Source of the DNA: a virus
Lineage: Duplodnaviria; Caudoviricetes
DNA length: 64,000 nt
Strand: one strand, 5' to 3'
IMG/VR virus record: IMGVR_UViG_3300005323_000042
Location: 17,433 to 81,432 of that record
The translations under genes and the position numbers were made by a program. Below are positions 15,342-57,710 of the stretch, in pieces; within the stretch, counting starts at the first letter, position 1, and every line of letters begins with the position of its first letter. The notes beneath the pieces were generated by a model. It made no database searches. It saw only the letters and a list, made by a program, of their open reading frames with translations, and was not told the origin of the DNA.

Positions 15342-16852
15342 TCATTTGCACCAATAACAGTTAATGAACCTTGAGCATTGTAATAAAACAATTTCTGAAT
15401 ACCCATATCCTCACCTCTGAATAGTGTACAATTATAATTACCATATACAGCTGTGGCATCGGTAAAATCCACAGAGGTATTTTCATCACTAAAGAAATCT
15501 TCGATTCTATTATATCTGAAAAAGCTACTTATAGTACAGTAACCAAAACCTGAACCAACAGTATTATGATTAAAACCCTCGCTTATAGAATGATGCTCAA
15601 AACTCTGCCCAATTGTATTATATTGGAAGTCTTTACCTATACAATTTTCATTACAATTGTATCCTATACTATTGTAGGCAAAAGCTCTTCCAACAAAGTT
15701 TAAATTAAATCCTAAACCTATAACATTATTTTGGGTGGATAAAGCTAAAGAAACATCACCCATAACATTACAATAAAAATCACCTAAAATAATGTTATCA
15801 TTAAAATTGGTAAGTGTATTTAGATAACAATTATTCCCAAAAGTATTATGATTAAAACTAAAACCGGTAGAATTTCGACTAAAACCATTTCCTAAAGAAT
15901 TGCTATAAAAATTGTTTGCATTAAGTGTATTATCAGTAAAACCACGCCCTATTTTATTATCATATACAATAGTTCCAAAAAATACACTATTGCATTTACT
16001 TAAAATATCAAATGAAGAATTGTTCAACTCTGGTTTTATAATATTATTATAAATTGTTGTATAAGAAGACTCAACGCCACTAATTGTAGGTGCAGTTGAA
16101 AACATTTTATAATCCATATAAAGAGAGGTGGTATTAACCGTAACAGGCCAGAAATTCCCATTAAGTTCCCAATTACCTTCAGTTGTACTTACATAAGATA
16201 AATCAGTCCATTCAAATTTTTTCCAACTTGATTTATTAGAAAATTGCTGTGCTCCTAAATCATTTAATTTTATATATATTTCAGTAGTATTAGTTTTTTT
16301 AACTACAGTACCTCTACCATAATCATGATCAGCTCCAGTAGCATCAAGACTTGATGGTGAAATCTGCCATCTACGAAATTTTACATTTCTGAAATCGAAT
16401 GGTATATCATTATTCTTTGCAGTATCTATCCTGCGATAGATATAACCTTTAGTACAACCTGGAACTACCACTTGATCACTTGTAACTTCATAATAAATTA
16501 TATCTTCAGGAAAACTTGCACTATATGCTTCGGGAGCAAGTTTATTAACTGCGATTGCAGTAACTATCAATGGTTCTACTGCCGGAGTATTGATATCAGA
16601 TGTTCTCGGAATTGTATGTACAGAAGCATAATCTGTAATTCTGTATCTACGTCCTATTATTAATCCCGAACTATTTATCAATGCAGTTAAAGTGGCATAA
16701 GTAATGTTTTGAATATTTGCTTCATAAAAATCTTTTTCAGTTTCGTCAATATTGACAGTAATACAGTTTTTCGTTTTATCGATAAAAATTTCACCATCCT
16801 TGAGCGATCCTTTATCGGTTGTTGTTCCTCTTCTTAATTGTAATGTGCCCAT
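15338..16852 (-). CDS. Tail fibre/spike-like protein with an Mtd-type N-terminal domain and a beta-solenoid C-terminus
   Basis: N-terminal LQLRRGT...L.DGEIFID motif. The C-terminal half has 9-residue N-x-(I/V)-G-x-x-F repeats. Confidence 0.65.
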   Translation of the reverse strand: MGTLQLRRGTTTDKGSLKDGEIFIDKTKNCITVNIDETEKDFYEANIQNITYATLTALINSSGLIIGRRYRITDYASVHTIPRTSDINTPAVEPLIVTAIAVNKLAPEAYSASFPEDIIYYEVTSDQVVVPGCTKGYIYRRIDTAKNNDIPFDFRNVKFRRWQISPSSLDATGADHDYGRGTVVKKTNTTEIYIKLNDLGAQQFSNKSSWKKFEWTDLSYVSTTEGNWELNGNFWPVTVNTTSLYMDYKMFSTAPTISGVESSYTTIYNNIIKPELNNSSFDILSKCNSVFFGTIVYDNKIGRGFTDNTLNANNFYSNSLGNGFSRNSTGFSFNHNTFGNNCYLNTLTNFNDNIILGDFYCNVMGDVSLALSTQNNVIGLGFNLNFVGRAFAYNSIGYNCNENCIGKDFQYNTIGQSFEHHSISEGFNHNTVGSGFGYCTISSFFRYNRIEDFFSDENTSVDFTDATAVYGNYNCTLFRGEDMGIQKLFYYNAQGSLTVIGANE

Positions 16853-17111: not shown

Positions 17112-17519
17112 TTAGAATGTATTTATTATAGATGCTTTTAATGCTGTAGTCCCTTCATTAAAACAGGCAGCAGATGCATAGATATTTTGATTGTTAGTTG
17201 TGAATGTTTCCCATTTGCCGATACTGCCGACAGAACAATAACAATCTTCATATACCACTATCGGTACATGGTTTATTATCAAGTTGCTGAAGATCTTTAT
17301 TTGCATATCTCCGTGCTCGTCTTTTGCGGCAATGGAAACAAAGAATGGTTTATATGGTTTTAATCTGTCACTTAACTCTTCAAATATTATTTTGCATCCC
17401 CACTTGCCGTTGATGACATTATCTGATTGGCCATATCTCTGACATTGATGCTCACAGGCTATTGTATTAATTTTTGCAATGAAATCTGAGGAATTCGAAT
17501 GTCTCTTTTGGATCGTCAT
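17112..17519 (-). CDS. Hypothetical protein
   Basis: Co-oriented ORF in the accessory insert; the start is uncertain. Confidence 0.55.
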   Translation of the reverse strand: MTIQKRHSNSSDFIAKINTIACEHQCQRYGQSDNVINGKWGCKIIFEELSDRLKPYKPFFVSIAAKDEHGDMQIKIFSNLIINHVPIVVYEDCYCSVGSIGKWETFTTNNQNIYASAACFNEGTTALKASIINTF

Positions 17520-35867: not shown

Positions 35868-36472
35868 TAGGAGTTCCCGTTATTGACATATTCATTATCA
35901 CCTGTATCAACTGTAGATTCATCAACATCAAATGGTCTGTATTTGGATGCATTGCTGAACTCTTCGGAAACACTTAAAACGGGGGAGAATTCTTTAGCGG
36001 TTTTTCTAGGATTCCTGTGTTTCATTGATTTAGTATAGTTGCTGGTTTCGGCGACATAATCCTGTTCACCGGTGTTGTGTGCTTTAGGTTGTGTTGAGAA
36101 TGTATCTGCGGATTCTATAGTTGTAGATGCTATAGTTGAGTCTGTACCACCTTTGTGTGTATTAGGAAGAACCTGTACGGTATGTGAATGCGATTTTAAG
36201 GCACTGTCTATACTTTCAATACTTTTATTTGTCTTTTCAAACTCTTTCTTTATTTCATCCTTTATATCTTTAGCCCACAACTCAAGATCGTCTTTATGAA
36301 CGTATTCGCTTGCGATAAAAGGGTAGAGGAGTATATATAGCTGTATTAACTGATCCTTGGTTACTTCTACAGGCGACAAGTTGAATGTCTGAAGCTTTTT
36401 AATATCACCGGCAAGCCTTACTGCCCAACTGCCAATTGTGGTAATGTCATCATTTAATTTCTGTTCAGCCAT
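35867..36472 (-). CDS. Hypothetical protein (201 aa)
   Basis: TAATG coupling to both neighbours. Confidence 0.65.
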   Translation of the reverse strand: MAEQKLNDDITTIGSWAVRLAGDIKKLQTFNLSPVEVTKDQLIQLYILLYPFIASEYVHKDDLELWAKDIKDEIKKEFEKTNKSIESIDSALKSHSHTVQVLPNTHKGGTDSTIASTTIESADTFSTQPKAHNTGEQDYVAETSNYTKSMKHRNPRKTAKEFSPVLSVSEEFSNASKYRPFDVDESTVDTGDNEYVNNGNS

Positions 36473-37437
36473 TAGAATTTATTCCATGTGTTGACGTGTT
36501 CGCTGTAGGTTAAAGGAGTGGTAAATAAGGCAAGTGTATGAAGATTCCCCTTGAAGTCGCTTCCGCCAATTACAATATTGCCATCTATTGACAGGTCTAC
36601 TGCTTCTTCGGGAACATCAACCAATGCCGCGACATTGCCATTGACAGATATGATTATATCGTCTGTTGATGTAAGTGAGACCCCGAATGTGTAAACTTCA
36701 TTATAATCTTCAGCAGAAACGTCAGCCTTAACGGTACTTGCGCCAAGTCTCACAAACGGTTCACGTGCCGCAGTTAAACCAAATGCAAAGCCACTCGTGC
36801 TGCATATTACCTGTTCTGTGTCAACTTCATCAACCAGGACTTTAACGAATAATGTCATAGCTGACAGACCGCCATTTAGTGGAAACGTTACCAAATCGGA
36901 CGAATCCTTGAAAGAGACGATACCGCAACCAAACATCATCTGGGTATCAGATAATGTTCCTGATGTAGATGAAATATCTGTATAAGAACTTGTTGTTGTC
37001 AAAGAACCTTTTGTTTCTGTAAATTCAAATAATGCTTCAAGATCTGAAGTTGTAAAATGGGCACTGGTATATGTGACATCAAGAGCAAAGTTAGTATAAT
37101 CGATTATTACATCTCCTGTCTGTTCGACTATAATGTGCAGATAGACCGATTCATTTGGTAAAATCGTTTTTAATGCATTATTTGTTGTATAACTGTGAAC
37201 AACACCGGCAACTGTACTGGTTGGTAAAAGCACAGAATCTGATGTGGCGGACCTTACATATGCGGGAGTTCCGGTCGAAGTAATTATAACATTATTAAGA
37301 ATCATCTTTGATTCATTCTTTATTGCGATAACAGTATGTCCGTATCTCTGTTTATCAAGAATTACCGGAATACTCTCTGTCTTTATGGGCAGGAAACAAT
37401 TGTTGTTTATATCAAAGACGTATAATTTTAATTCCAT
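36472..37437 (-). CDS. Virion protein with a C-terminal LamG/ConA-like domain
   Basis: MTLFVKV...QVICS...FGVSL...ISVNG...IVIGG..FKGNL..LALF pattern. Confidence 0.55.
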   Translation of the reverse strand: MELKLYVFDINNNCFLPIKTESIPVILDKQRYGHTVIAIKNESKMILNNVIITSTGTPAYVRSATSDSVLLPTSTVAGVVHSYTTNNALKTILPNESVYLHIIVEQTGDVIIDYTNFALDVTYTSAHFTTSDLEALFEFTETKGSLTTTSSYTDISSTSGTLSDTQMMFGCGIVSFKDSSDLVTFPLNGGLSAMTLFVKVLVDEVDTEQVICSTSGFAFGLTAAREPFVRLGASTVKADVSAEDYNEVYTFGVSLTSTDDIIISVNGNVAALVDVPEEAVDLSIDGNIVIGGSDFKGNLHTLALFTTPLTYSEHVNTWNKF

Positions 37438-42081: not shown

Positions 42082-43008
42082 TTATATTATGTTTGTTTCT
42101 GTTGTTAAATACTTTTTTATACCATTGTGTTTTAATTGAGTGTACCGATCTATTTTTAAACGTAACTAACAACTTTTCATTTGAATCACTATGCGGATCT
42201 ATTTGTTTTAATAACTCAAGTTCTTCTTGTGACCAATAATTAACTTTAGATGGAATAATAGTTTTTCTTTTACGTTCAAGGTATGTTGTGTTATTTTTGT
42301 ATAAGTAATTTTGAATAGCAATTACATTATTGATTGAATTGTATTCGAGCCTGAAATGCTTCCATTAGTTGTTATTTGTTTATGTATAATACCGACTTCT
42401 GTTGAGAGTATATAATTAAGTCTTTCAATAAACGGTTTGCTTGCAGATACAATTACAAAATGTACCCCGGTTTTAGTCCCCAAATATCCATCACCGTCAA
42501 AATATCCAAGTATAAAACTGTGCCAAAACTGTTGTGGAATTTTATCAAAAACCTGTTCACTTAATGTTTTAGTTTTATTGGGGGTAATATGTTTGTTGAT
42601 TATGTCTTCATATAGTTGGGCGCATAAAATATTAATATAACAAGCACTGTTGTTTGTTGTTATCGATTTGTTAAACAGTTTGCCAAACTTAGACAAATGA
42701 TCACAGTCCTTGATTGCCAGACGTATATTGACAGATTTTCTTTTACTATGAAGACTTCCATCGGCAGCAATAAACCCTAATCAATATGCTTTTTCATTTG
42801 TATCAATTGTAGAGAAGTAATTGTTGTTGTATCTATTTAACCTTGGCGCACCTACTCCAGTTGGTTTTAATCCATATTTCTTTAACACAGATTCTGCTAC
42901 AAACGGCGTAATATTAAGTTGTTTAGCAATGTGGTTTGCGACTGTAATTCCACTTTTATATAAAGCTATTATTTCATTATTTCTTGATATAGTATTGAGT
43001 TTTTTCAT
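42082..43008 (-). pseudogene. Free-standing LAGLIDADG homing endonuclease pseudogene
   Basis: EKAY*LGFIAADG has TGA at 42781-42783 in place of the usual Trp. The second motif is FILGYFDGDG. A 1-nt frameshift at about 42355 precedes FRLEY...NYLYKN...LERK and a Myb-like WS.EE.ELL tail. Confidence 0.85.
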
Positions 43009-43014
43009 AAATAA

Positions 43015-45693
43015 TTACATTAGATGGTGTTGGTTGTGTTGTGACCAGATTTGAAGTCCTATACCTTGTGTAGATGTCATAACCTGTTCCCGCTTCTCTT
43101 TTATTCTTCTATAACCTTCGCCGCTTGTAGGCATGCCTCTCTTTATCGTGCGAAGATACGACATCTCCTCACTGAAAATTTTCCTATTCTCGTCAAGCTG
43201 TAATGCCATCTCTTCCAATGATGGTTTGTCTTTTTCATATGCCTGGAGTGTTTCAAGACCTGCTGTTTTGGGCAAAGATGATTTATCAAGTATTCCGCGC
43301 GCAATATCGTTTTCAACTCTTGCTCTTGTGCGTTCTACTTTTGCAATGAGAGATTCGTATTGACGAGGATTATAATTGACAATAAATGTTTTCTGTTGTT
43401 TCAAATTATCACGACTGATATACTGCAGATAACCACGCTCTGTACCGGTGTTGCCAAGATAAAATTGCATCTGTGCAACATGCTGTGGTTTTGGTTTTCC
43501 TTCTCTCTGAATGGCATTAAAAATTCCGCCCGAAACAGTTTTATAATCACCTATACCTTGGGCGGTTTTTATATCCATATGACCGGAAATACCGTGCTGA
43601 TAATTAACAGTAAGAACTTCTGCATTTGATGCAGTCCCGTTTGTAAGTTCCTGTGCCTGTAAATACTGATGCAATGCAGTACCGGCCTGTGCTGATGCTG
43701 CAACGTATTCGCTTGGCTCTTTATCTTCTTCTGTCATGTACTTGTATAGATCTGCGTCTGACAATCCGATCTTTGAAGCACGGACCATCTGATAGCGGTA
43801 TATATCTTCAGCTTCATTATATGAAGGGTTAAGTTGCGGATTTGGTCCTTGATAACCTGATCCAAAATCAGTCATCTTCTTTATATTAAATTTATTAACG
43901 GAACCAGGACCAGCATTAGGATGCAACCCCTCTATGGTATTGTATGAATCATCTTTGGCAGATATTCTATTCGAAACAGGCAACAGGCCAACCAGCAATT
44001 CGCCTGCAGAATAACCACCGAATGCAGCCATTGCATATTGCATTTTATCTGAGTTTAGAATATTCTTTATTTTGAGCAGTGTTTGATTTTGTGTTTTTGC
44101 TCTTTTTAAATATGCATTTATACCAAGGATAGCAGCATCGTCTGCAAATGAGAGTGCAAAATTAACAAGACCGTTTCTTTTATCTTCCTCACCGTTTTTC
44201 TTATCAGCGTATTTTTTAGCCGCACCAACAAAAGCTCCGAGAGTAAACGCAGTATACTTACCATTCCACCCTGAACCGAAATCAGTCATAGACTGAATAT
44301 TTGTTTTGTTAACGCCTCCGCCAGGATGCAAACCTTCGATAGTATTATAAGTGTCATCTTTGGATGAGATTCTTCCGGGTGGGGGAGCGTTATATCCTGA
44401 AGACAACTCACTATATAACATAGCAGCGCCTACTATACTGGCAGTGATACCGGCAGGTTTAAGCCACTTTTTATTTCTGCTTATCCATCCAAAGCCGTCC
44501 ATTGCAGCAGACCCCGATGATCCTGCTATGGACTTAATAATTCTGTCTTCTGCTTTCTTATTTCTGTTTAATATTTCTACTTCTATATCGCCGAAACTCT
44601 GTCCAGCATTGCGCATCTGTCTTACTTCATTTTCAAACCGGTTGAACCTGGAAGTATATTCGGCATTTGTATAACCATACTTGGTTCTCTTGATGCCGCC
44701 GAATTTATTCGATGCAAACACCTCATCAAGCGTATCCATGTATATTTGTTTACCCTTGATGTTTTTCTTTTTAGTTCCGCCCGGAACAGCATATAATCTT
44801 TTTTTACCTTTCTCTTCGCGTTTAACTTTATTAAAAGCCATATCGAGAAGAGAATTGTCTACCGACTGATGTGCCCATGTAGTTTGTTGTGAAGCAATCT
44901 TTTTAAATACATCAAGCCTGTTATCGCGAAGTGTTCCCTGTGTATCAAGTTCATGCAGCGAAGATGTAAGAAAATCATATACATGTTTATTCAAAGCAAC
45001 GTCACTGGCATCATGTAACTGTTCTCCAAGTCCAAGAGCCGCACCGAAGAAATTCATCTTTGTGCCGGTTATATAATCTCCTTTGAAATCAGTAAGTATA
45101 TTCTTTTCTTCAAGAATACTAAACGCATACTGTGCAAGATCTCTGGTATCGACGACGGCAACCTTGCCGACTTTCAGTCGTTGATTTATCTTGCTGATAT
45201 AGGATCTATATCCTTCATGGTTGATTTTAGATCTGTTTAACCTGACAGCGGTTGATAGTTTGCCTTTTGTAACACCGAACGCCGCCCTTAGTTCGCTGAC
45301 GGTTTCTTCCGGAAGTTCCTGTGATATTGCTGCTAAATCAAATCCAATATTATGGCCAATTATCAGCCCGCCACCTTTAAGGTGCGGGACAATGTCAGAC
45401 ATCAGAGACTCGGAGATACTCGATGTAAACTGACTGGACTTTATGTTGTCTTTATTGAACTGGTTAAGAACTTCAGAATAACCCTGTTTGCTGTAAACAG
45501 ACCACTTGGACATATCAGGGTTACTAAGATATTTAGCATTCAGACTTCCTGACTTGGCATTATACGGCAACGAAGCATATGAATATATTCTATGCTTCTT
45601 AAGCAGACCTCCGGTTTCGGTATCAAAGAAAATACCTCTATCCTTGGCAACTGCATTTAATTCTGCTATGTTAACCGGATATGGATTATTCAT
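43015..45693 (-). CDS. Fusion of a DnaQ-like 3'-5' exonuclease, a repeated linker and a PD-(D/E)xK nuclease (892 aa)
   Basis: FFDTETGG, IGHNIGFD and LHDASD at the N-terminus. GTALHQYLQ, GHMDI, DYKT and HVAQMQFY at the C-terminus. Two copies of RIS.KDD.YNTIEGLHP...MTDFGSG. Confidence 0.75.
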   Translation of the reverse strand: MNNPYPVNIAELNAVAKDRGIFFDTETGGLLKKHRIYSYASLPYNAKSGSLNAKYLSNPDMSKWSVYSKQGYSEVLNQFNKDNIKSSQFTSSISESLMSDIVPHLKGGGLIIGHNIGFDLAAISQELPEETVSELRAAFGVTKGKLSTAVRLNRSKINHEGYRSYISKINQRLKVGKVAVVDTRDLAQYAFSILEEKNILTDFKGDYITGTKMNFFGAALGLGEQLHDASDVALNKHVYDFLTSSLHELDTQGTLRDNRLDVFKKIASQQTTWAHQSVDNSLLDMAFNKVKREEKGKKRLYAVPGGTKKKNIKGKQIYMDTLDEVFASNKFGGIKRTKYGYTNAEYTSRFNRFENEVRQMRNAGQSFGDIEVEILNRNKKAEDRIIKSIAGSSGSAAMDGFGWISRNKKWLKPAGITASIVGAAMLYSELSSGYNAPPPGRISSKDDTYNTIEGLHPGGGVNKTNIQSMTDFGSGWNGKYTAFTLGAFVGAAKKYADKKNGEEDKRNGLVNFALSFADDAAILGINAYLKRAKTQNQTLLKIKNILNSDKMQYAMAAFGGYSAGELLVGLLPVSNRISAKDDSYNTIEGLHPNAGPGSVNKFNIKKMTDFGSGYQGPNPQLNPSYNEAEDIYRYQMVRASKIGLSDADLYKYMTEEDKEPSEYVAASAQAGTALHQYLQAQELTNGTASNAEVLTVNYQHGISGHMDIKTAQGIGDYKTVSGGIFNAIQREGKPKPQHVAQMQFYLGNTGTERGYLQYISRDNLKQQKTFIVNYNPRQYESLIAKVERTRARVENDIARGILDKSSLPKTAGLETLQAYEKDKPSLEEMALQLDENRKIFSEEMSYLRTIKRGMPTSGEGYRRIKEKREQVMTSTQGIGLQIWSQHNQHHLM

Positions 45694-47385: not shown

Positions 47386-47593
47386 TCTCTTCCAGTATCT
47401 GTTTAATAATGCCAATCAGCTTATCATATTCGCCAGATTCATAAAATATTGTTTCAGCCTTGCGTACATAGGCACAGGAATCCGGATTTTCGTGCTTTAA
47501 TCGTTTTATCTTGACTAGACCATAGAAAGCTTCCAGATACGAACCCTTTACGGTATCCAGTAACTTCAGTATAGATTCTGATGTGAATTTCAT
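47366..47593 (-). CDS. Hypothetical protein, first gene of the leftward operon
   Basis: Co-oriented ORF next to the divergent intergenic region. Confidence 0.55.
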   Translation of the reverse strand: MKFTSESILKLLDTVKGSYLEAFYGLVKIKRLKHENPDSCAYVRKAETIFYESGEYDKLIGIIKQILEENERSRQ

Positions 47594-47815: not shown

Positions 47816-48613
47816 ATGAAAAGGTTACTTGTACTATCACTTATTTTTCTCAATTCGCTATTATTTTCACAGGAGCCGAAGCTCTTAATGTCAACTATTG
47901 AAGAAAGTAATTATTCTATCGATCTTCTTCATGATATAAACAATATTGTTGTTGGTTATTATGAATTCAATAAAGTGACAGGTGTACTAGAGGTTTATAA
48001 TATTAATACTCTGGAAACTATTTATTTAAAAACATTTCCATCCGGCGATTTAATCAGCGGAATTCAGTTGATAAAGATCGATAATAATGATGTTTTGGTT
48101 CTTCGCGCAACAAGAGACGGAAGTCCAAATGTAGCATATACTTCATTGATAAATATTACAACGAACAAGATTATAAAAGAATGGCTGGCTATAGATAAAA
48201 GCTATAATGGTTATTCTTGTATCACGGATGATAACAGAATATTATTGTATATGTGGATATACAGATATACTGCAAATGATGTTCTTTCTGATACTGAGAT
48301 ATATGAACTTGGCAAGGCAACAACATCAGTAGCCAAGAATAATAATCCGGATGGGTATTCTCTTAAACAGAATTATCCGAATCCTTTTAACAGTATGACA
48401 AGAATAGATTATGAAATTTCTGTGCCGGGTGAGTATATGATTAATATCTTTGACGCAACAGGTAAGACAATAGAATCTTTAAAGATCCATGCTGAGGCAG
48501 CGGGCAGTTACAGTTATATGTGGCAGGCGAAAAATCTTTCGAGCGGCGTTTATTTTTATCAATTGGAAGGAGAACAAAACAGATCAACTAAGAAGATGAT
48601 TTACTTAAAGTAA
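47816..48613 (+). CDS. Secreted protein with an N-terminal signal peptide and a T9SS type-A-like C-terminal sorting domain
   Basis: Signal peptide MKRLLVLSLIFLNSLLFSQ. CTD motif LKQNYPNPFN..T.I.Y...NLSSGVYFYQL...TKKMIYLK. Confidence 0.85.
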   Translation: MKRLLVLSLIFLNSLLFSQEPKLLMSTIEESNYSIDLLHDINNIVVGYYEFNKVTGVLEVYNINTLETIYLKTFPSGDLISGIQLIKIDNNDVLVLRATRDGSPNVAYTSLINITTNKIIKEWLAIDKSYNGYSCITDDNRILLYMWIYRYTANDVLSDTEIYELGKATTSVAKNNNPDGYSLKQNYPNPFNSMTRIDYEISVPGEYMINIFDATGKTIESLKIHAEAAGSYSYMWQAKNLSSGVYFYQLEGEQNRSTKKMIYLK

Positions 48614-49093: not shown

Positions 49094-49762
49094 TTAATAA
49101 TTTGACACAAAAAGTGCCTGTTGTATATTTGGAAGATAGGGATTGATCCTCTCGCAAAATCGAATCAGGTCATCCTTAAACGCCGTAACACCACTTCCCA
49201 GCAATATAATTTTTAATATAGCACCTACAGCCAGCCCATAAGACTGTTCATAACCAACCGCGCTGTATGCCCCTCCTTCACTTATCACAATACTTCCCCC
49301 GGCATAATTAACAGTAAAAGATTTTTTGACTGCCTTGAAAATTTTTGAACATGAATTATACGAATTCAGCAATTTTACGGGCCATGTTGCTTCAGGTATA
49401 TCTGCATGTATATAAAGAATAAAAATAAATGTCTGAAGTAATTTTTCTTCATATAGAAACTGAATTGTACTATTTGGACCTGGAAAAATAGTTCTCTCAT
49501 ACTTCAATGCGGGGCAGTCAATACAATGTCCTTGCGCCCGCAGCAAGGCATAGTTTTCAGGAAAAAATATAGAAGGATTCACCTGTAGTACATCAGCAAT
49601 AGAATTAAGTTGTGAATATCTAGGTTCTCTTTCACCCGTTAAAAACCTTGTTAAATCACTTTCTGCTATTGCGGCGCTGGAAGAGAGTTCTTTTTGGCTT
49701 ATCCTTTTTTCCTTAATAAGCATAAGTAGAATATCGGAGAATTTTTCTGTTTCGCTTTTCAA
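49094..49762 (-). CDS. XRE-family HTH regulator with CxxC and a cupin-like C-terminal domain
   Basis: ISQKELSS...I.ESDLTRFLTGEREP HTH and CIDC. TTG start with SD GAGGT. Confidence 0.8.
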   Translation of the reverse strand: MKSETEKFSDILLMLIKEKRISQKELSSSAAIAESDLTRFLTGEREPRYSQLNSIADVLQVNPSIFFPENYALLRAQGHCIDCPALKYERTIFPGPNSTIQFLYEEKLLQTFIFILYIHADIPEATWPVKLLNSYNSCSKIFKAVKKSFTVNYAGGSIVISEGGAYSAVGYEQSYGLAVGAILKIILLGSGVTAFKDDLIRFCERINPYLPNIQQALFVSNY

Positions 49763-49891
49763 AACGACCTCGTTGAAAAATGTAAAAAATCCGTTATTTA
49801 ATATCCAACTATAAGTCCCTCCCCTTAGATATATCTAAGGAACCGAAATATAAATGAGATTAAATAAACATGTCAATGGTTTTGGAAAATA

Positions 49892-50515
49892 TTATTTCTG
49901 TTTTGGAAATTTCTCCAAAATCTTTTTCGGATTTGTTGCCATTAGATCGACAAGTCGCGGTACATTTTCGCCGGTGCCGAATACAAATAATCTTGTATTG
50001 TCTTTGTAAGATATAACATTTGCATCGCCTGAATTTACGTATGCAAAACTTCCGGGGGCCAGTGATACAAGTGGTCCGCCCTTATTGGAATACGAAACAC
50101 CCCCTTTAATACAGAAAACAAAAAAGTTAATTAAGAACTTCTTCGATAGACGACTTGTAACCGGCGGTTCGTTCATTATAGAATCAATATACAGCAATAG
50201 TGCAACACATTTATGTTGCTTGTCATAGAATAATAACTGAAAACGAAACGGATATTGAGCACTAATAGGTTTATTATACTCGTATCCGCATTGTGGGCAA
50301 TTGATATTGTTACTACTCATTAGGTCCAAAGGAAAAAACGACTCAACCTGCAGATTGAATGTGCGCATAATATCTATCAATTGGTCGTACTTTGGTTGTT
50401 TCCCCTGATTGAGCATTTTTGAAAGCTCACTATTTGAAATTCTTAATAAAGCGGCAGCGTCTTTCTGTGGTATATTAAGATTATCAATAGCACTCTGTAG
50501 GTACTTACTAAACAC
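49892..50515 (-). CDS. XRE-family HTH regulator with CxxC and a cupin-like C-terminal domain
   Basis: IPQKDAAALLRISNSELSKMLNQGKQP HTH and CPQC. GTG start with SD GAGGG. Confidence 0.8.
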   Translation of the reverse strand: MFSKYLQSAIDNLNIPQKDAAALLRISNSELSKMLNQGKQPKYDQLIDIMRTFNLQVESFFPLDLMSSNNINCPQCGYEYNKPISAQYPFRFQLLFYDKQHKCVALLLYIDSIMNEPPVTSRLSKKFLINFFVFCIKGGVSYSNKGGPLVSLAPGSFAYVNSGDANVISYKDNTRLFVFGTGENVPRLVDLMATNPKKILEKFPKQK

Positions 50516-50812: not shown

Positions 50813-50824
50813 CAATTTAAATTG
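50813..50824. promoter_or_regulatory. Palindromic operator candidate CAATTTAAATTG (copy 1)
   Basis: Perfect 12-bp palindrome overlapping TTGACT. Confidence 0.6.
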
Positions 50825-51050: not shown

Positions 51051-51320
51051 ATGGAAGCGAAAGAACTGCTTCATATGAACATTGCAGACTGTCTTCCAGA
51101 TCCGGATTTAGAATTCGGCTGGATGACACAGAATGAAGGGGTCAGATACTTGGCATACGTAACCGCAGCCGGTATGTATGCAGATATTGACAGCAGAGAT
51201 ATGTATCAATCTTTGCTGGACGTAGCTGCAGTTGCAAGGTTTCAGAACGTTGCTCAGACACCTGAAGTAGAATTTATACTTATTAACGATGTTATTGAAC
51301 ATTTAATCCGCACAAACTAA
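51051..51320 (+). CDS. Hypothetical protein (89 aa)
   Basis: Strong SD AAGGAG. Confidence 0.75.
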   Translation: MEAKELLHMNIADCLPDPDLEFGWMTQNEGVRYLAYVTAAGMYADIDSRDMYQSLLDVAAVARFQNVAQTPEVEFILINDVIEHLIRTN

Positions 51321-51385: not shown

Positions 51386-51427
51386 CAATTTAAGTTGACA
51401 ACCTACCCAATATTGCAATTTAAATTG
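51386..51427. promoter_or_regulatory. Tandem operator candidates (CAATTTAAGTTG at 51386, CAATTTAAATTG at 51416) upstream of the RNAP-like gene
   Basis: Two copies 30 bp apart; the first overlaps TTGACA. Confidence 0.65.
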
Positions 51428-51483: not shown

Positions 51484-54114
51484 ATGTTATATTCAATTTG
51501 GGCTCTTTTAACATTGCTCTTAGTAAGTCCTTCAATAGAGAAGGCAAAAGAGCTTCTCGTTATTGTTCACAATGGATATCTAGGTAAAAGCATCAGATTA
51601 TACTGGTATTATATCAGCATAGATGCTGTAGACAAGGCTAAGGAGATAATCCAAAAGCTAAATCATAATACAATCATTAGACAGATAATAAATCACAGCA
51701 AACTGGTAGAAGATTTACCGGTTGTTGTGGCTTATGATAATAAATACAGGCCAATCTGGTATTTATCGAAGAGAAAAGCGTACACGCAAACCATAATAGA
51801 TAAGGATGGAAATGAGGTAAAGGTTACGATTCCGCCAGTCTATCAAAGACCACAACTATTTCCGGAAGTTCTGGAAATGGTATGGAACATCATCGAGAAA
51901 GGAAAGAATATTGGGCAATCAGTCGGCATTAATTGGACCGACAAGAAAGGCCGGAAAAGATATAATACAATCGTATTGAAACCAGAAGAAAAGATCACGG
52001 TGAAAAGCCGTGAGTATATGTTAATTGCCAGTGGTAAAAATAAGACCTTCTACTGGCCAACAGATGTTCCGATTCCTTCTGAATTGAAACCTTGGATTGA
52101 ATCTAAAAACATTCAGTCCAAGAATGATTTTGTAGCTGGCCTGAAAAGGCATGGCCACACAGAATACATCAAAGACATTGATATTACTGTTCAGGAAGAA
52201 CATCAGTTCGATCTTGGAGCTGTAGTACTTCCAAGAGAGGTAGTTAAACAACTGTCGAAGAGATTTGGATTCGATGTGAATCTATCTCAAATCACTATAT
52301 GGTTCGAAGACGGAACATTCTTTAAGGGGACTGTTGAGTCCGATGAGTTCTCGAAAATGCCGGTTGGCTATTATGGTGGATTAAAATCCGCCATTAGCAA
52401 ATATGATGGTAAAAATAAGGTAAAGGCGCTAAAAATCGGCGCAAGAGCGATTAGAATGAACGTATTGTCTAATTATAGAGTGCAACCCTGGGAGGCAACC
52501 GCAAATCATCAGCAATTCACCTATACTGGCAATAAAATGCCAGTTGTAGTTGAACCGGTTAACAATGAGTTACTTGCAAAAATATGTCTTGGTGAGCCGG
52601 GCATCACTATGCAAGCCCAACAAGAATTCTTGTCCAATATCTCACGTGCTTTACATAAATTTAATGTATCTGGCTATGCGGGCCAGATTGGTGCATATTG
52701 CGATACGTCCTCTGCAAACTTTATTATCTTCACAAGCGACCGTAAACTCAAGAATCAGATCAAAGAATTCACATTTCTTTGGTCGCCATTCTTACCAGTG
52801 CATACTGACCTTATGAAGGTGCTGGTGAAATTTATGTATAAACCAGATTACGATGGTGTGATCTGTTTGAACACAAATGAACAAAATATGGAATGGATAG
52901 ATAGATGGTTTATCCAATACGCAGGTCGTGACTGCGACGGTGATGGGATTGTGATTACTGATGATCCAAGAATCATATCGCTTGCAAAGAATGTACCTGA
53001 GATTCAGTGGTACAACACAGTGCAATTCAAAGGCGAAACGCCAGTTGACTGTACTAATAGCCATCTTGCATTAATGATGTCTTATAGTAACATAATTCTA
53101 CATTCAGGAATCGTCGGAACATTCGACAACTTTGCCAGAAGAATAATAACCGAGAGGCCAGCACTTATGACCTGGGAATTAAGAGTAAGACTAACCAAGA
53201 TCATACAAATGGGTATAAGTTCGGTCAAGAAACACGTTGACGATGAGGATTTAAATAATCCGTTTATCATTTATAAGATTCTTGGTCTTGACTATAAGAC
53301 TAATGAATGGCTCAGGAAGTCAACAATAGATTTCAAAAAAGAAGTCGTTGAGGTTGTAAAGAAACTGAATGGAACAGTGCAGAAATTAATGTTCATTAAG
53401 GAAGGACAAGATCCTGAAGTGTTCAAATTAGAAATAACTGAACTCTATCAAAACCTACACGAAAAGTTGGATAAAATTGAACTAGCCGATCCAAAAGCAG
53501 TTAAGGCTTTCACCTCTGCGGTGGAAGCGGCGCAGGAGTTCACTTGCGAACGTTCTGCATACTTCAACATGAAAAATATCGGCAAGTCATTATTGGCAGA
53601 AGCAAAAGCTGTTGACATCTTGGCAGCAGAAATATTGCTAGCTGAGATCAAAGATCTCTGGTACAGAAAAGACGATGAATCTCAATCTATTGCCGAGGAA
53701 ATCGGCTTAGATTTCAATGAAATCAAAGACTTAATAGAATACCAGATAGAAACATCAGAGATAGAACCAAGAGCTTTATTTGGTGTTCTCTTATCAAATC
53801 TATCTTCAAGATTTCTTACCTCTATCATTTCAATGGAGCAAATGCTTCAACTTGATAGATTATCAGGACAGAATATGTACTGCTCATATTCCATTCCTGT
53901 TAAGAATAACACATTGCATGTTGGGCAGAGATTAACATTCGGCCAACTGTCAGCAAGAGTTCCAATGTCTCAGTTGTTGGCAGAAATGCCAATTTGTGAT
54001 TATTTGATTAAAGACATTAAGCAGGCTCAATATTACAATTGGGCCAGCAAAACAGGTAATATTCAGCAGTCAAATTATCTGTTGAAACTAGTACCTGTAT
54101 TGGACAATAATTAA
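51484..54114 (+). CDS. YonO/RdRP-like single-subunit two-barrel RNA polymerase (876 aa)
   Basis: Catalytic AGRDCDGD at 52921-52944. FDLGAVV...SQI...FKG upstream. GVICLN before the motif and ITDDPRII after it. Downstream GTFDNFA...QMGISSVKK matches the order of RdRP-family motifs. Confidence 0.7.
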   Translation: MLYSIWALLTLLLVSPSIEKAKELLVIVHNGYLGKSIRLYWYYISIDAVDKAKEIIQKLNHNTIIRQIINHSKLVEDLPVVVAYDNKYRPIWYLSKRKAYTQTIIDKDGNEVKVTIPPVYQRPQLFPEVLEMVWNIIEKGKNIGQSVGINWTDKKGRKRYNTIVLKPEEKITVKSREYMLIASGKNKTFYWPTDVPIPSELKPWIESKNIQSKNDFVAGLKRHGHTEYIKDIDITVQEEHQFDLGAVVLPREVVKQLSKRFGFDVNLSQITIWFEDGTFFKGTVESDEFSKMPVGYYGGLKSAISKYDGKNKVKALKIGARAIRMNVLSNYRVQPWEATANHQQFTYTGNKMPVVVEPVNNELLAKICLGEPGITMQAQQEFLSNISRALHKFNVSGYAGQIGAYCDTSSANFIIFTSDRKLKNQIKEFTFLWSPFLPVHTDLMKVLVKFMYKPDYDGVICLNTNEQNMEWIDRWFIQYAGRDCDGDGIVITDDPRIISLAKNVPEIQWYNTVQFKGETPVDCTNSHLALMMSYSNIILHSGIVGTFDNFARRIITERPALMTWELRVRLTKIIQMGISSVKKHVDDEDLNNPFIIYKILGLDYKTNEWLRKSTIDFKKEVVEVVKKLNGTVQKLMFIKEGQDPEVFKLEITELYQNLHEKLDKIELADPKAVKAFTSAVEAAQEFTCERSAYFNMKNIGKSLLAEAKAVDILAAEILLAEIKDLWYRKDDESQSIAEEIGLDFNEIKDLIEYQIETSEIEPRALFGVLLSNLSSRFLTSIISMEQMLQLDRLSGQNMYCSYSIPVKNNTLHVGQRLTFGQLSARVPMSQLLAEMPICDYLIKDIKQAQYYNWASKTGNIQQSNYLLKLVPVLDNN

Positions 54115-54128
54115 CAATATTAATAAAC

Positions 54129-54160
54129 TTAGCCCTGCTAGCAGTAACTAGCAGGGCTAA
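54129..54160. terminator. Perfect 13-bp inverted repeat after the RNAP-like gene
   Basis: TTAGCCCTGCTAG-N6-CTAGCAGGGCTAA; no U tract on the + strand. Confidence 0.5.
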
Positions 54161-54180
54161 AACTATAGGAGTAGATCAAT

Positions 54181-54525
54181 ATGCTACACATCAATCTACC
54201 ATTGAAATCTACGATTTCTTTGGTAATAAGTCAAGCAGAGGATAATCCGATTGTCCAGGCTGCTAAAGAAAAATTTGGTCCAGAAGCTATCGTCCTATGC
54301 GGTGGCAGAGTGCTGCACAACAAGATTAGTCCTGTTGTCGGTATCAGGGCCGATGCATCTAAATTTCCGGTCCTTAAATATATGGGACAGGGAGGCTATC
54401 TGTCATTAAAGTGGAATAATATTCCACAGACAATACCAGATAACCATTATATAGTTGACTCATTCGAATCTGGGTCAAGCACTTATTTAACACTGCTACC
54501 AATCCCTACAATGGAGGAAAACTAA
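54181..54525 (+). CDS. Hypothetical protein
   Basis: SD AGGAG and an intact ORF. Confidence 0.7.
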   Translation: MLHINLPLKSTISLVISQAEDNPIVQAAKEKFGPEAIVLCGGRVLHNKISPVVGIRADASKFPVLKYMGQGGYLSLKWNNIPQTIPDNHYIVDSFESGSSTYLTLLPIPTMEEN

Positions 54526-54526
54526 T

Positions 54527-55186
54527 ATGCAAAAAAGAAAAACTTATCAGATAGTAAAACAGAATGAACAATACCCAGCCAATCGTGTTGGGTATTTTGC
54601 TAATGTGACCTGGGATGAAGTCCAGGTGTTAAGAATGAAATTAGGTCTGGTTAATGGATACCAGATAAACAGCATTATCGGCACTGGCGAAGGGAAGTTA
54701 TTAAATCCTACCATCGAACATGCAACAGCACCACAAATGACAGTTGCAGAGAATACAGATAAAAGACCTATAATGTCCTTGTCAGTTGATGCCTGGACAA
54801 GCGGTAACCCAGGCATGGGTGGATGCCGATTAGTAGGCGAATATAAAGGACAGGTAAAAGAGTTGTCCACATATACATCTAAAGCTCCTCACTCCAATAA
54901 TTTATTTGAGCTTGTAGCTGTGCTAATCGCACTGAGATGGGCAAGTAAAGAAGAAAATAGAATGGGCAGTGAAATCTATTCTGACAGCAAAACTGTTTTG
55001 GCCTGGATTACAAAGGCAATGGAAGGCAATAAGAAGATACTGGGACCAAAGGTCAATGAACGTGAATTGATTGAAAATACTCTATTGGATATCAAACTTC
55101 TAATGGAGCAAACGAAAGTCAAATTAATTAAATGGAACACAGAACTGTGGGGCGAAATCCCGGCAGATTTTAACCGTAAAAAATAA
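54527..55186 (+). CDS. rnhA: Ribonuclease HI with a degenerate N-terminal hybrid-binding domain
   Basis: SVDAWTSGNPG, SNNLFELVA, IYSDSK and C-terminal W.TE.WGEIPADF.RK. Confidence 0.85.
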   Translation: MQKRKTYQIVKQNEQYPANRVGYFANVTWDEVQVLRMKLGLVNGYQINSIIGTGEGKLLNPTIEHATAPQMTVAENTDKRPIMSLSVDAWTSGNPGMGGCRLVGEYKGQVKELSTYTSKAPHSNNLFELVAVLIALRWASKEENRMGSEIYSDSKTVLAWITKAMEGNKKILGPKVNERELIENTLLDIKLLMEQTKVKLIKWNTELWGEIPADFNRKK

Positions 55187-55197
55187 GGAATATAACA

Positions 55198-56499
55198 ATG
55201 GATATTAAAGAAACATTAAAAATCTTCTCATTCCTGCCGGCTGTTCATGCAGTCGGCGGATGTGTCCGCGATTGGCTTATGGATATTCCATACCATGACA
55301 TTGATCTTGCAACAGCGGCAAAACCGGAAGAAGTTATCAGTTTATGTACCGAACACGACATCGGTACAGTCAATACTGGAATAAAATCCGGCACTATTAC
55401 CGCTTATGTTGATGGTATTGGCTACGAAATAACAACGTTCCGTTCTGACCATAATCAGGATGGGAGGCATGCTGATGTTAATTATGTTTCCACTATTGAA
55501 GAAGACCTGGCACGCAGAGATTTTACAATCAATGCAATAGCAATAGATACTGACGGTAATGTCATTGATCCTTATGGCGGGGTCAATGATATAGCGTTCT
55601 TTAAGAGAATCAGGGCAGTCAGAGATCCAATCCAGAGATTCAGAGAAGACTATCTCAGAACTCTCAGAGCTGCACGATTTGCCGCAAGATTCGGATTCAG
55701 GATAGACCCAAGAACACTAAATGCCATGACATGTTTATCATGGCGGATTCAGAAGTTTGTTTCTCCAGAACGGGTAAAAATGGAGTTCGATAAGGCTTTT
55801 CAGGACAGCCACCCCGACAAGTTTATCGATATACTATTCAAAACAAGAATTCTACAACAGATATTTCCTGAATATTCTACAGCAGATAGACTCACCCACA
55901 ACCACGAATATCATCCTGAAGGGCCGTTACTTGAACACATAAAAGTTGTAGTCTGTCGTGCCGTTCCAGAATGCAGATGGGAAGCATTTCTGCATGACAT
56001 TGGGAAAACTATTACGTTCAACCAGAGTGTAAATGGTGAATACTACAATTACTATGACCACGCTGAAATCGGTGAGGTATTGGTAAACGATATTGCAGAC
56101 AGATTAAAATTTAGCAACATACTTAGAGCCTCTTGTGTTGCAGCAACGAAATACCACATGATGCCGGCTATGATAATGAATGCCGATTGTAAACACGAAA
56201 GAGCAATCAGAAGATTTCAGAATATTGCTGGAGAATATTTGGATATGTTGCATCGTCTCTGCTACGCAGACTTAATAGATAGAAAGTCATACGACAAAGA
56301 ACTATTCGACAAAATCTTTACACCACTACAACCTAAACCGAAACCAATAGTATCTGGCAAACAAATCCTCGCAAGAGGATATAAACCAGGACCAGAGATT
56401 GGCAAAATTCAACGCATCTGTCAACAGTATTACATAGAAACAGGCATTGATGATCCCGGGATTTTACTTGATGCAGTTATAAGTGGCAATTTAAATTGA
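55198..56499 (+). CDS. cca: CCA-adding tRNA nucleotidyltransferase with an HD domain
   Basis: VGGCVRD, DIDLAT, EITTFR, DLARRDFTINA, EDYLR.LRAARFAAR and LHDIGK motifs. Confidence 0.9.
   Translation: MDIKETLKIFSFLPAVHAVGGCVRDWLMDIPYHDIDLATAAKPEEVISLCTEHDIGTVNTGIKSGTITAYVDGIGYEITTFRSDHNQDGRHADVNYVSTIEEDLARRDFTINAIAIDTDGNVIDPYGGVNDIAFFKRIRAVRDPIQRFREDYLRTLRAARFAARFGFRIDPRTLNAMTCLSWRIQKFVSPERVKMEFDKAFQDSHPDKFIDILFKTRILQQIFPEYSTADRLTHNHEYHPEGPLLEHIKVVVCRAVPECRWEAFLHDIGKTITFNQSVNGEYYNYYDHAEIGEVLVNDIADRLKFSNILRASCVAATKYHMMPAMIMNADCKHERAIRRFQNIAGEYLDMLHRLCYADLIDRKSYDKELFDKIFTPLQPKPKPIVSGKQILARGYKPGPEIGKIQRICQQYYIETGIDDPGILLDAVISGNLN
56487..56498. promoter_or_regulatory. Operator candidate CAATTTAAATTG at the end of cca
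   Basis: Perfect palindrome overlapping TTGACA, at the start of the non-coding region. Confidence 0.6.
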
Positions 56500-56569: not shown

Positions 56570-57710
56570 TCAACTCCGCTCCGTTTCCGGGTCTTCGGAA
56601 ACTGCCGGGGTCTTCCGGCAAAGCAGTAGACTGCTTGGAGCTTCGTCTGGTCTTGGTCTGGTCAGGTCTGTCCACGGGCGATTGATTGCTGTTATCCAGA
56701 ATGGCAATCCGCTGACACCGTAGATGTCTTTACTCCTATAATTTATCATTACAGGCTCCGTCCCCACCGTGGCATCCCTATGTCACATATGTGAGCCAGA
56801 AGAATTAAAGGGAGCACTCCCACAGTCAGTCAATGACGTGTGCTCCTTATTCCTCTTTGGTCAGGTCGGGTCTGCCAAGGGGTGAAAGTCGGATTGGCGA
56901 CTATAAATAGTGCATCAGGCCAATCGCGTTGACATTTGTCAGGTTGCAATGCTCAACGTTGCAGGTTCTGCGGAGAACCCAAAAGTCCGAGCCAGCCGTA
57001 ACAAAGCAGGGATGGTGTTCAACTTAAATTGTTGTCAAAACAGGCCATCGAAGACCTACATTCTATTACCCTATTACGGTTTCTTCTTGTAAGTGTAAAA
57101 AGACTGGATAGACAGATGTGAAAACACCATCTGCGGTCAGGTAAGACAGAGAGCCTGACCTTGAAAATAAGAACGACTGTCAGTACTTCACTGTTGCTAT
57201 GTCCCTTGAGCAAGGAATGCAAATGCAGTGATTAAAGATATGAAATTCAAGGAAGGAAAAGTTTATCCATATCGGCGAAGTCCCTTAACGAACACCGGGT
57301 ATGACACCCTGGCTATTAGGCGCAGTAATGAACGGCGCGTTCCCAGAACAAGTAGATTCTACGAATGTAATGCGGTGTATGTGACTAATACATTATAGGC
57401 ATTCGTGCGGAGACTGTACCTAAAAATTCAGTTGGCGGGTTCACTGCCAGTAAAGTGTTGAACACTCTAATAGCAGGAGTGAGTATGTTATGCATTGAAA
57501 ACTTAGTAGCAATGCGATCACGGCGAAAAGCGTTAAAGCTATCCATTGTGGTATGCCAAGACCTAACAGCACAGCAATAAGACTGTTAGCGAGCGATTAC
57601 AATGACGATAAGGTGGCTCTTAAGGTGCAAATACAGCACCCGTCGGGCAACGGACTATGAGTTTTTGTCTTGTTTACGAGAACCGGCACGCCCCGATTTG
57701 ATTCCAAATG
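56570..57710 (+). ncRNA. Hairpin-dense, apparently non-coding region (candidate large structured RNA and/or origin)
   Basis: More than 15 short stems visible by eye, raised GC and no convincing ORFs. The strand is tentative. Confidence 0.4.
57020..57031. promoter_or_regulatory. Operator candidate CAACTTAAATTG (reverse complement of the 51386 copy)
   Basis: One mismatch from the perfect palindrome; adjacent to TTGACA on the minus strand. Confidence 0.5.

Follow-up and report, generated by a model that had tools for sequence, protein, structure and literature searches.

The 64,000-nucleotide stretch of viral DNA analysed here (the window; positions 17,433 to 81,432 of IMG/VR record IMGVR_UViG_3300005323_000042, Caudoviricetes) carries on its + strand, at 51484-54114, an open reading frame (ORF) for a protein of 876 amino acids (aa), referred to below as P0001. 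As modelled, P0001 is a polymerase with the two-barrel fold of RNA-dependent RNA polymerases (RdRPs) and phage RNA polymerases (RNAPs), in which a beta-like barrel comes first and a beta'-like barrel second. It founds a small, rare and previously unannotated family with a non-canonical Pro-gate, an obligate-looking partner gene and a distribution over phages and integrative elements. The protein probably acts as an early-expressed, repressor-gated, non-virion, DNA-dependent RNAP that works with its small partner.

The ORF is intact and contains no internal stops. Its start ATG sits 8 nt past an AGGAG, the opposite strand is stop-rich, and its coordinates and length are exactly those given by a first-pass annotation made from the sequence alone. 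The polymerase motifs listed in that annotation were all found, and in the order it gave: FDLGAVV (242-248), SQI (268-270), FKG (280-282), W-S-P-F-L (433-437), GVICLN (458-463), AGRDCDGDGIVITDD (479-493) and IQMGISSVKK (574-583). The DxDGD of P0001 is the only one in the 81-kb record. A protein identical to P0001 letter for letter is encoded on contigs of several independent metagenomes, the longest of which measures 181.5 kb.

An exhaustive HMMER search of 1.84 billion cluster representatives returned a family of 16 proteins at E <=1e-3. Twelve of these, besides the query, are full-length relatives that are 21-31% identical to it, and P0001 was aligned with these 12 to give a family alignment of 13 members. 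Invariant or at least 90% conserved positions include D243, G245, Q269, T271, K281, G282, Y297 and K301, then P435, L437, N463, G481, R482, D483, D485, G486, D487 and G488, and finally I574, Q575, I578, K582 and K583; K221, R222, R552 and R553 are also among the conserved columns. Because the listed motifs coincide with conserved columns across relatives just 21-31% identical to the query, the alignment argues that they are not chance matches. Neither the single protein nor the 13-member profile found anything relevant in Pfam, PHROGs or the PDB sequences. A tblastn search of 50,697 GenBank phage records with P0001 gave no match at E up to 1, and a pattern scan of IMG/VR for relatives gave none that was confirmed. 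Coiled-coil matches in the helical C-terminal half of the protein were rejected as noise, and a match to ZapC_N was sub-threshold.

An AlphaFold2 model of P0001 was built from the 13-sequence alignment, with a mean predicted local distance difference test score (pLDDT) of 79 and a predicted TM score (pTM) of 0.76; most core blocks, within residues 170-580, had a pLDDT of at least 90. Foldseek against the PDB matched the model, at probability 1.0, to QDE-1 (E 9.6e-10), P32 gp64 (6.5e-8), RDR2 (7.4e-8) and P74 gp62 (about 1e-7), followed by P23-45 gp96 at E 1e-3 and by no further significant match; a YonO structure was not among the PDB matches. A search of BFVD with the model returned P23-45 gp64 at 6.5e-8, and the nearest clusters in the ESM Atlas were annotated as RdRP, both viral and bacterial. 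Alignment of the model to individual structures with VIA-align gave the following scores.

Maize RDR2: Z 15.3, 473 aligned residues
P74 gp62: Z 15.2, 515 of 592 residues aligned
P32 gp64: Z 14.9, 528 aligned residues
QDE-1: Z about 12
P23-45 gp96: Z 8.6
crAss-like phi14:2 gp66: Z 8.0

At the level of the fold, the Foldseek probability of 1.0 and the VIA Z scores of 12-15 uphold the initial proposal of a single-chain two-barrel polymerase of the eukaryotic-RdRP/phage class. Parts of the model were matched as well. Residues 224-335 resembled stand-alone double-psi beta-barrel (DPBB) proteins (aspartate decarboxylase and the p97 N domain, Z about 6), and residues about 390-600 resembled the active-site region of Rpb1 and the largest subunits of Pol III (Z about 6). 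Because of this second match, DCDGD (483-487) is placed in the second barrel of the model, and thus within a DPBB, as had been predicted. The parts of the protein are laid out along the gene as follows.

51694..52083, + strand: N-terminal beta-rich, slab-like domain, aa about 71-200 (the model has strands at 79-192; QDE-1 and RDR2 align from about residue 70 in VIA)
52111..52149, + strand: helix 210-221, ending in K221 (invariant) and R222 (near-invariant), LKRxG (from conservation and the model helix)
52153..52488, + strand: DPBB1, aa 224-335 (D243, Q269-x-T271, K281-G282, K301), element order b-b-a-b-b-(a)-b-b in the model
52651..52959, + strand: DPBB2, the predicted catalytic barrel, aa 390-492 (invariant K392, P435, L437, N463 and Asp triad; Rpb1/Pol III alignment)
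52780..52788, + strand: Pro-gate W433-S434-P435, non-canonical (canonical R-x-P), from the 13-member alignment
52924..52947, + strand: G-R-D-C-D-G-D-G, aa 481-488, predicted metal-binding Asp triad (alignment; hhalign pairing with YonO DNDGD and gp64 DYDGD)
53059..53154, + strand: 32-residue helix, aa 526-557, bridge-helix-like, after DPBB2 (model; ends in invariant R552 and near-invariant R553)
53203..53232, + strand: I-Q-x-x-I-S-S-x-K-K motif, aa 574-583 (I574, Q575, I578 and K582 invariant; aligns with gp64 IQVAVDRQKR)

The N-terminal beta-rich domain of the model may be the counterpart of the QDE-1 slab. The helix at 526-557 lies inside the stretch of about 390-600 that aligned to Rpb1 chain residues about 354-1105, and would be a candidate bridge helix.

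Structures of QDE-1 complexes (PMC9508822) were used as the key for residue equivalences. In these structures Q736, which takes the position of Rpb2 K979, contacts the 2'-OH of the product, and R671 of the DPBB1 auxiliary helix (D1AH) contacts product phosphates. R962, in an R-X-P described as conserved, hydrogen-bonds the 2'-OH of the incoming nucleoside triphosphate (NTP) and that of the RNA 3' end, and R738 is RdRP-specific, being alanine in Pol II (PMC9508822). By this key, Q269 of P0001 corresponds to Q736 and K281 to QDE-1 K743 (Rpb2 K987), and K301 plausibly corresponds to QDE-1 K767. By its position, helix 210-221 with K221/R222 is plausibly the D1AH. The conserved 'xKG' lysine of DPBB1 is present, as K281-G282 is invariant and paired with gp64 K149-G150. 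The fourth acidic residue of DPBB1 (QDE-1 D709, Rpb2 D837) is D243, kept by at least 90% of members and replaced by E in P0009, and it pairs with the invariant D112 of gp64 in an alignment of low statistical confidence. T271 occupies the position of R738; since R738 is RdRP-specific and replaced by alanine in Pol II, its absence is no cause for alarm. The Asp triad D483/D485/D487 is invariant in 13/13 members together with G486 and G488, and conservation at G481 and R482 reaches at least 90%. Catalysis would be performed by this triad in DPBB2, with D243, Q269, K281 and K301 supplied by DPBB1, and the product and NTP would be held by K221/R222.

The Pro-gate departs from that of known enzymes. 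In all 13 members it reads [W/F/V/P/I/T]-[S/N/F]-P-x-L, with P435 invariant and position 433 never R or K, so that of the R/K-x-P found in QDE-1 (R962/P964) and Rpb1 (R446/P448) the proline is kept and the arginine is gone. The arginine-less Pro-gate is a divergence inside the two-barrel fold and is no evidence against that fold. R482, a family-specific arginine directly before the first catalytic Asp, may substitute for the lost residue. A published survey of viral two-barrel RNAPs filtered its candidates by "[RK]xPx{20,100}DxDxD"; because the Pro-gate arginine has been lost, 10 of the 13 members, including P0001, are missed by this filter, and the other 3 pass only by way of unrelated upstream tripeptides. 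That the Pro-gate and QxR arginines, both conserved in the nearest families, are absent could also be taken as active-site decay, P0001 then being an inactive polymerase fold retained, for example, as a nucleic-acid-binding or regulatory protein. We consider this extremely unlikely, as R738 is not universal (the Pol II alanine) and the Asp triad with its flanking glycines, K281, K301, Q269 and P435 are invariant among members 21-31% identical to the query. An invariant triad at such low identity indicates purifying selection on a metal-dependent active site.

P0001 had been assigned at first to the YonO family, an assignment that failed at the level of sequence. With E values up to 1 allowed, the PF05183 hidden Markov model (HMM) still matched no member of the 13, and when the family was compared by hhalign with 15 aligned YonO-family members, only a spurious match of 28 columns came back. 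Against single YonO and gp64 sequences hhalign lined up the catalytic motifs, at a probability of 1%, and in the gp64 alignment P435 was paired with P291 and L437 with L293. The comparison with the gp64 family gave an E of 0.008 and a probability of 5%, yet it was collinear over 293 columns through all motifs, pairing DLG with GDG, Q269 with Q133, FKG with WKG, GRDCDGDG with GADYDGD, IQxxISSxKK with IQVAVDRQKR, and the P-x-L loops with each other.

The closest solved phage relative of P0001 is of the gp64/gp62 type (P23-45/P74-26). Like P0001, gp64 of Thermus phage P23-45 (with P74-26 gp62 and P32 gp64; PDB 8f5m and 8f72) is a two-barrel polymerase in a single chain whose gene lies outside the virion module, the 515-528 aligned residues cover nearly the whole chain of 592-595 residues, and D-x-G, Q, (W/F)KG, P-x-L, DxDGD and IQ..(I/V)(S/D)..K(K/R) are collinear in the two. 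In contrast to P0001, gp64 measures about 616 aa, with neither the N-terminal region of ~120 aa nor the C-terminal beta domain. It has an invariant R289-x-P291-D-L293 and keeps the canonical N-R-x-P and Q-x-R arginines, both of which are changed in P0001; no conserved small partner is known for it; and it belongs to a phage of a Thermus host, where it works beside a tape-measure-fused virion RNAP. The signature of a second, virion two-barrel polymerase was absent from the 81-kb record, with DxDGD in no ORF of the virion block. The virion RNAPs themselves (phi14:2 gp66, 6vr4; P23-45 gp96, 8h2m) share the two-barrel core, but they are giant, packaged in the virion or fused to the tape measure, and encoded in structural modules, whereas P0001 has 876 aa and is encoded in a non-structural block.

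With QDE-1 and RDR2 (PF05183), P0001 shares the fold from the slab-like domain through both barrels, the order of the barrels, the Q at the position equivalent to K979, and candidate equivalents of K743, K767 and the basic residue of the D1AH. It differs from them in giving no PF05183 match, in having T271 at the R738 position and W433 at the R962 position, and in its phage and mobile-element setting as opposed to RNA silencing. YonO of Bacillus SPbeta is likewise a phage single-chain two-barrel polymerase (839 aa) with a DxDGD triad, and its gene stands next to one of repressor type where a long gene block begins. It differs in keeping R-S-P-H-L (invariant R492-S-P494-H-L496) and M-x-R..KG, and its family has more than 4,600 matches, some with PF05183, versus 16 representatives for that of P0001. 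The characterised phage members of the clade are all DNA-dependent RNAPs, namely YonO (PMC5467207), gp64 and gp96 (PMC10770324).

The gene that follows the polymerase is conserved with it. The features immediately downstream are listed here.

54128..54161: hairpin with a 13-bp stem between the polymerase and partner genes, without a T-run on the + strand
54181..54525, + strand: conserved small partner gene, 114 aa, with a homologue directly 3' of the polymerase in 11/13 loci
54527..55186, + strand: RNase H (type 1; PF00075 E 2.4e-8, phrog_531)
55198..56499, + strand: CCA-adding tRNA nucleotidyltransferase (PF01743 7.7e-31, PF12627, phrog_2244 1.2e-73)

A homologue of the partner, from one family of proteins of about 96-134 aa, is the next gene in 11 of 13 loci that have downstream sequence, at HMM E values of 1e-19 to 1e-41. 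An HMM built from 7 loci found the partner in 4 held-out loci at 1e-19 to 1e-32, always directly after the polymerase, and the partner profiles of the phage and element groups matched one another in hhalign with a probability of 94% (E 9e-8). By these comparisons the polymerase and the small partner are a conserved two-gene module, and the synteny suggests that the partner may bind the polymerase. The partner model (pLDDT 68) was uninformative, its best PDB matches (ribosomal proteins and NusG domain 2) reaching Z 4.0, and a comparison of the partner with the C-terminal domain of the polymerase, of which it might have been a paralogue, was negative.

RNase H also follows the polymerase in the closest relative, that of the L008 contig, and faintly in L013, and a CCA-adding enzyme likewise comes after a 21%-identical homologue in L015 (a 255-kb contig). 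Downstream of the CCA-adding enzyme lies an ORF-free structured region of about 1.1 kb, and ORF-poor stretches further downstream are filled by tRNAs or ribozymes. Inside the 1.1-kb stretch Rfam identified a Pistol ribozyme at 56887-56948 on the + strand (49.5 bits; gathering threshold 34.5), and a second Pistol (49.1 bits) was found in L014 at 94-150 on the + strand, about 100 nt upstream of the distant homologue P0013.

This RNA-rich setting would suit an RNA-dependent RNA polymerase that copies phage or host RNA, either amplifying or converting the downstream structured RNAs or making double-stranded or antisense RNA in conflict with the host. Beyond the CCA-adding enzyme, the structured region and the Pistol ribozymes here and before P0013, such a role would be consistent with the RdRP-type Q269, whose QDE-1 counterpart Q736 makes the product 2'-OH contact, and with the presence of RDR2 and QDE-1 among the best structural matches. 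It is nonetheless very unlikely in our judgement: the RdRP-specific R738 position is T271, the prokaryotic and phage relatives that have been tested all use DNA templates, and neither an RNA replicon nor RNAi-like partner genes were seen.

By genomic context, the relatives sort into three groups.

Large phages: this phage, L008 (197.7-kb contig), L013 and L015 (255.8-kb contig), with phage genes, RNase H, CCA-adding enzyme and tRNAs
Integrase-bearing elements: L009, L011 and L012
Bacterial metagenome-assembled genomes (MAGs): L017-L021, from Neomarinimicrobiota, Lentisphaeria and one contig binned as Chloroflexi

Among the elements, L009 has a tyrosine integrase beside tRNA-Met, two excisionase-type HTH_17 genes, a family-A DNA polymerase and a 1706-aa DEAD/MZB helicase. 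L011 carries type III restriction-modification (RM), Fic, Gam and DUF932 genes, and L012 carries bacteriophage exclusion (BREX) genes, RadC, Gam, Rad52 and a family-A polymerase.

These contexts bear on a role in replication priming, in which the enzyme would act on phage or element DNA, possibly in single-stranded form (ssDNA) as QDE-1 does, to make RNA primers or R-loops, RNase H would process or remove these and a DNA polymerase would extend them, the whole forming a portable priming cassette. RNase H lies two genes downstream of the polymerase here and in L008 (faintly in L013), a single-stranded DNA-binding protein (SSB) is encoded in the same + strand block as the polymerase, and the elements pair the polymerase with Gam, Rad52, RadC, DUF932 and a family-A DNA polymerase. 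The flanks examined of L009, L011 and L012 showed no recognisable primase, but they are short and such a gene may lie elsewhere. The family-wide loss of the 2'-OH-sensing arginine may also have altered sugar selectivity. On the other side, no primase is found among the characterised single-chain two-barrel enzymes of phages, a protein of 876 aa with slab-like and clamp-like regions resembles processive RNAPs, and the CCA-adding enzyme and nearby RNA genes fit RNA metabolism better. Overall we regard a priming role as unlikely. A further reading, that the arginine-less Pro-gate marks a lineage with changed sugar or template selectivity, is distinctly unlikely in our estimate. The polymerase and partner would then be a portable cassette, common to large phages of the Fibrobacteres-Chlorobi-Bacteroidetes (FCB) group and defence-carrying integrative elements, that primes or copies ssDNA or incoming DNA through a relaxed choice between NTPs and dNTPs or through primase-like synthesis. 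If so, bacteria would have in this cassette a counterpart of the RNA/DNA duality that RNAPs and archaeal PolD show.

The proposed early expression of the polymerase gene draws on its upstream region; the features located there and the further palindrome copies are as follows.

49094..50515, - strand: two XRE-type helix-turn-helix regulator genes, 49094-49762 and 49892-50515 (HTH_26 8.1e-7, HTH_3 3.8e-5, PHROG transcriptional regulators)
50813..50824: third palindrome copy, upstream of the 89-aa ORF
51051..51320, + strand: 89-aa ORF before the polymerase gene, of no known family
51386..51427: tandem 12-bp palindromes CAATTTAAGTTG (51386-51397) and CAATTTAAATTG (51416-51427), starts 30 bp apart, 57-98 nt before the ATG
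56487-56498 and 57020-57031: further palindrome copies, from the same scan

The tandem operators that had been noted before the polymerase gene are real. The window holds 5 copies of the palindrome where 0.88 are expected, and 0 of 100 shuffles reached 5; the three copies besides the tandem pair mark the heads of other + strand units. L008, whose polymerase is the closest relative at 31% identity, has two palindromes of the GTCAAT-N4-ATTGAC type that lie 64-110 nt before the polymerase gene, start 31 bp from each other and share the CAAT...ATTG half-sites with those before P0001. Since the half-sites and the distance from the gene are the same, and the spacing nearly so, despite the low identity of the proteins, the operator arrangement is conserved. 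The adjacent XRE-type regulators are candidate repressors for the palindromes, and the TTGACA contained in the first palindrome would fit a host-type promoter gated by a repressor.

These observations are consistent with an early-expressed RNAP. The two palindromic operators, bound by the adjacent XRE-type regulators, would overlap the promoter of the polymerase gene, and once repression is lifted host RNAP would transcribe polymerase and partner early, in a T7-like logic. The polymerase and the partner product would then transcribe phage genes without host RNAP. Candidate targets are the virion block on the minus strand, the downstream RNA-gene region, or both. The virion block, which the first-pass annotation had described as a 47-kb late operon, is real and ends at 47593, with matches to sheath, major capsid, portal and TerL, but its length is about 60 kb in the 81-kb record. 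It has very few intergenic gaps, and a block so tightly packed would suit a processive enzyme such as YonO, which is a DNA-dependent, processive RNAP for late genes (PMC5467207). The polymerase gene lies outside this module, as the first large gene of the + strand block. The late operon as the target of the polymerase, as first suggested, is a guess: the genes served differ between relatives, YonO acting on late genes and gp64 transcribing early and some middle genes (PMC10770324), so the target class is not fixed by homology.

Several observations weigh against an early DNA-dependent RNAP. A search for a shared promoter motif, using exact k-mers and 14-mers with <=2 mismatches in all intergenic regions of the 81-kb record, found none that was convincing; the record examined here is itself an 81-kb part of a genome of at least 181 kb. 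The 2'-OH-binding Pro-gate arginine is absent in 13/13 members, and RNA-specific synthesis thus cannot be taken for granted. The link to known families by sequence is weak (hhalign probability at most 5%), true RNA-dependent enzymes (RDR2 and QDE-1) are among the closest structural matches, and the genes around the polymerase, which in the phage encode RNase H and SSB and in the elements encode Gam, Rad52 and PolA, fit replication or recombination equally well.

Single-chain two-barrel RNAPs such as YonO, crAss gp66 and P23-45 gp64 and gp96 are minimal relatives of cellular RNAP, and they inform reasoning on the origins of transcription and on the escape of phages from dependence on host RNAP. 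The P0001 family adds a lineage that current tools (Pfam, PHROGs, PDB sequence search and the [RK]xP...DxDxD filter) miss. Because it has departed from the arginine that reads the 2'-OH, it is a natural test of the need for that residue. The conserved small partner could be a long-sought specificity or processivity factor for this class of enzymes. A mobile module, for transcription or for priming, is suggested by the presence of the family in large phages and in integrase-bearing elements, beside BREX, RM and Druantia-like genes.

In the elements, defence cargo stands directly beside the polymerase-partner module, at 1-6312 in L009 (a 1706-aa DEAD/Helicase_C/MZB/DUF559 protein), at 1-7118 in L011 (type III RM, Fic and FRG) and at 1-8584 in L012 (BREX PglX/PglZ/BrxL and Fic). 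The module marks the boundary between this cargo and the Gam/Rad52/PolA genes of the element. About 860 bp before its polymerase homologue, L009 also contains three 25-nt palindromic repeats (7013-7145; core TACATATATGTA) that look like operators or iterons.

Hydrophobic N-terminal segments are found in the phage subgroup, and the integrative-element subgroup is without them. P0001 opens with a hydrophobic stretch of 18 residues (51484-51537, aa 1-18; mean Kyte-Doolittle hydropathy 1.8), the distant homologue P0011 (L015) has 2-3 transmembrane-like segments within an N-terminal extension, and in L013 a 114-aa protein with three transmembrane segments (6338-6682) overlaps the start of the polymerase gene. 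These N-termini may reflect membrane association or a mis-called start.

The view that the phage is a myovirus of an FCB host was supported by the sheath match, an adjoining type IX secretion sorting domain and the relatives integrated in Neomarinimicrobiota MAGs. The gene with the C-terminal sorting domain (47816-48613, + strand; Por_Secre_tail, E 5.2e-11) is flanked by the virion block and the regulators. An 892-aa protein (43015-45693, - strand), encoded at the start of the minus-strand block, has a DnaQ-like exonuclease-type N-terminus (phrog_192) and a Cas4/RecB-like PD-(D/E)XK C-terminus (phrog_1706 and 1990), and a LAGLIDADG-like ORF lies at 42322-42696.

Other candidate signals came out of the sequence scans. 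A scan for sigma-70 promoters gave 51 sites versus 38.8 (standard deviation 5.8) in shuffles, a weak excess in which no usable pattern emerged. The sequence AATCGATT(A/T)xAC was rejected as a promoter: at least two of its copies fall within coding sequence, and the 40 nt common to two copies also read as a similar peptide. This 40-nt element, starting with AATCGATT, occurs in two copies that are about 80% identical, at 37094-37135 (- strand), inside the gene at 36472-37437, and at about 16,610-16,650 of the record (window -785), just upstream of a gene for a 1863-aa M23-peptidase; it may be either a repeated peptide motif or a regulatory element. The 12-mer AATCGATTATAC is present in 4 exact copies in the window.

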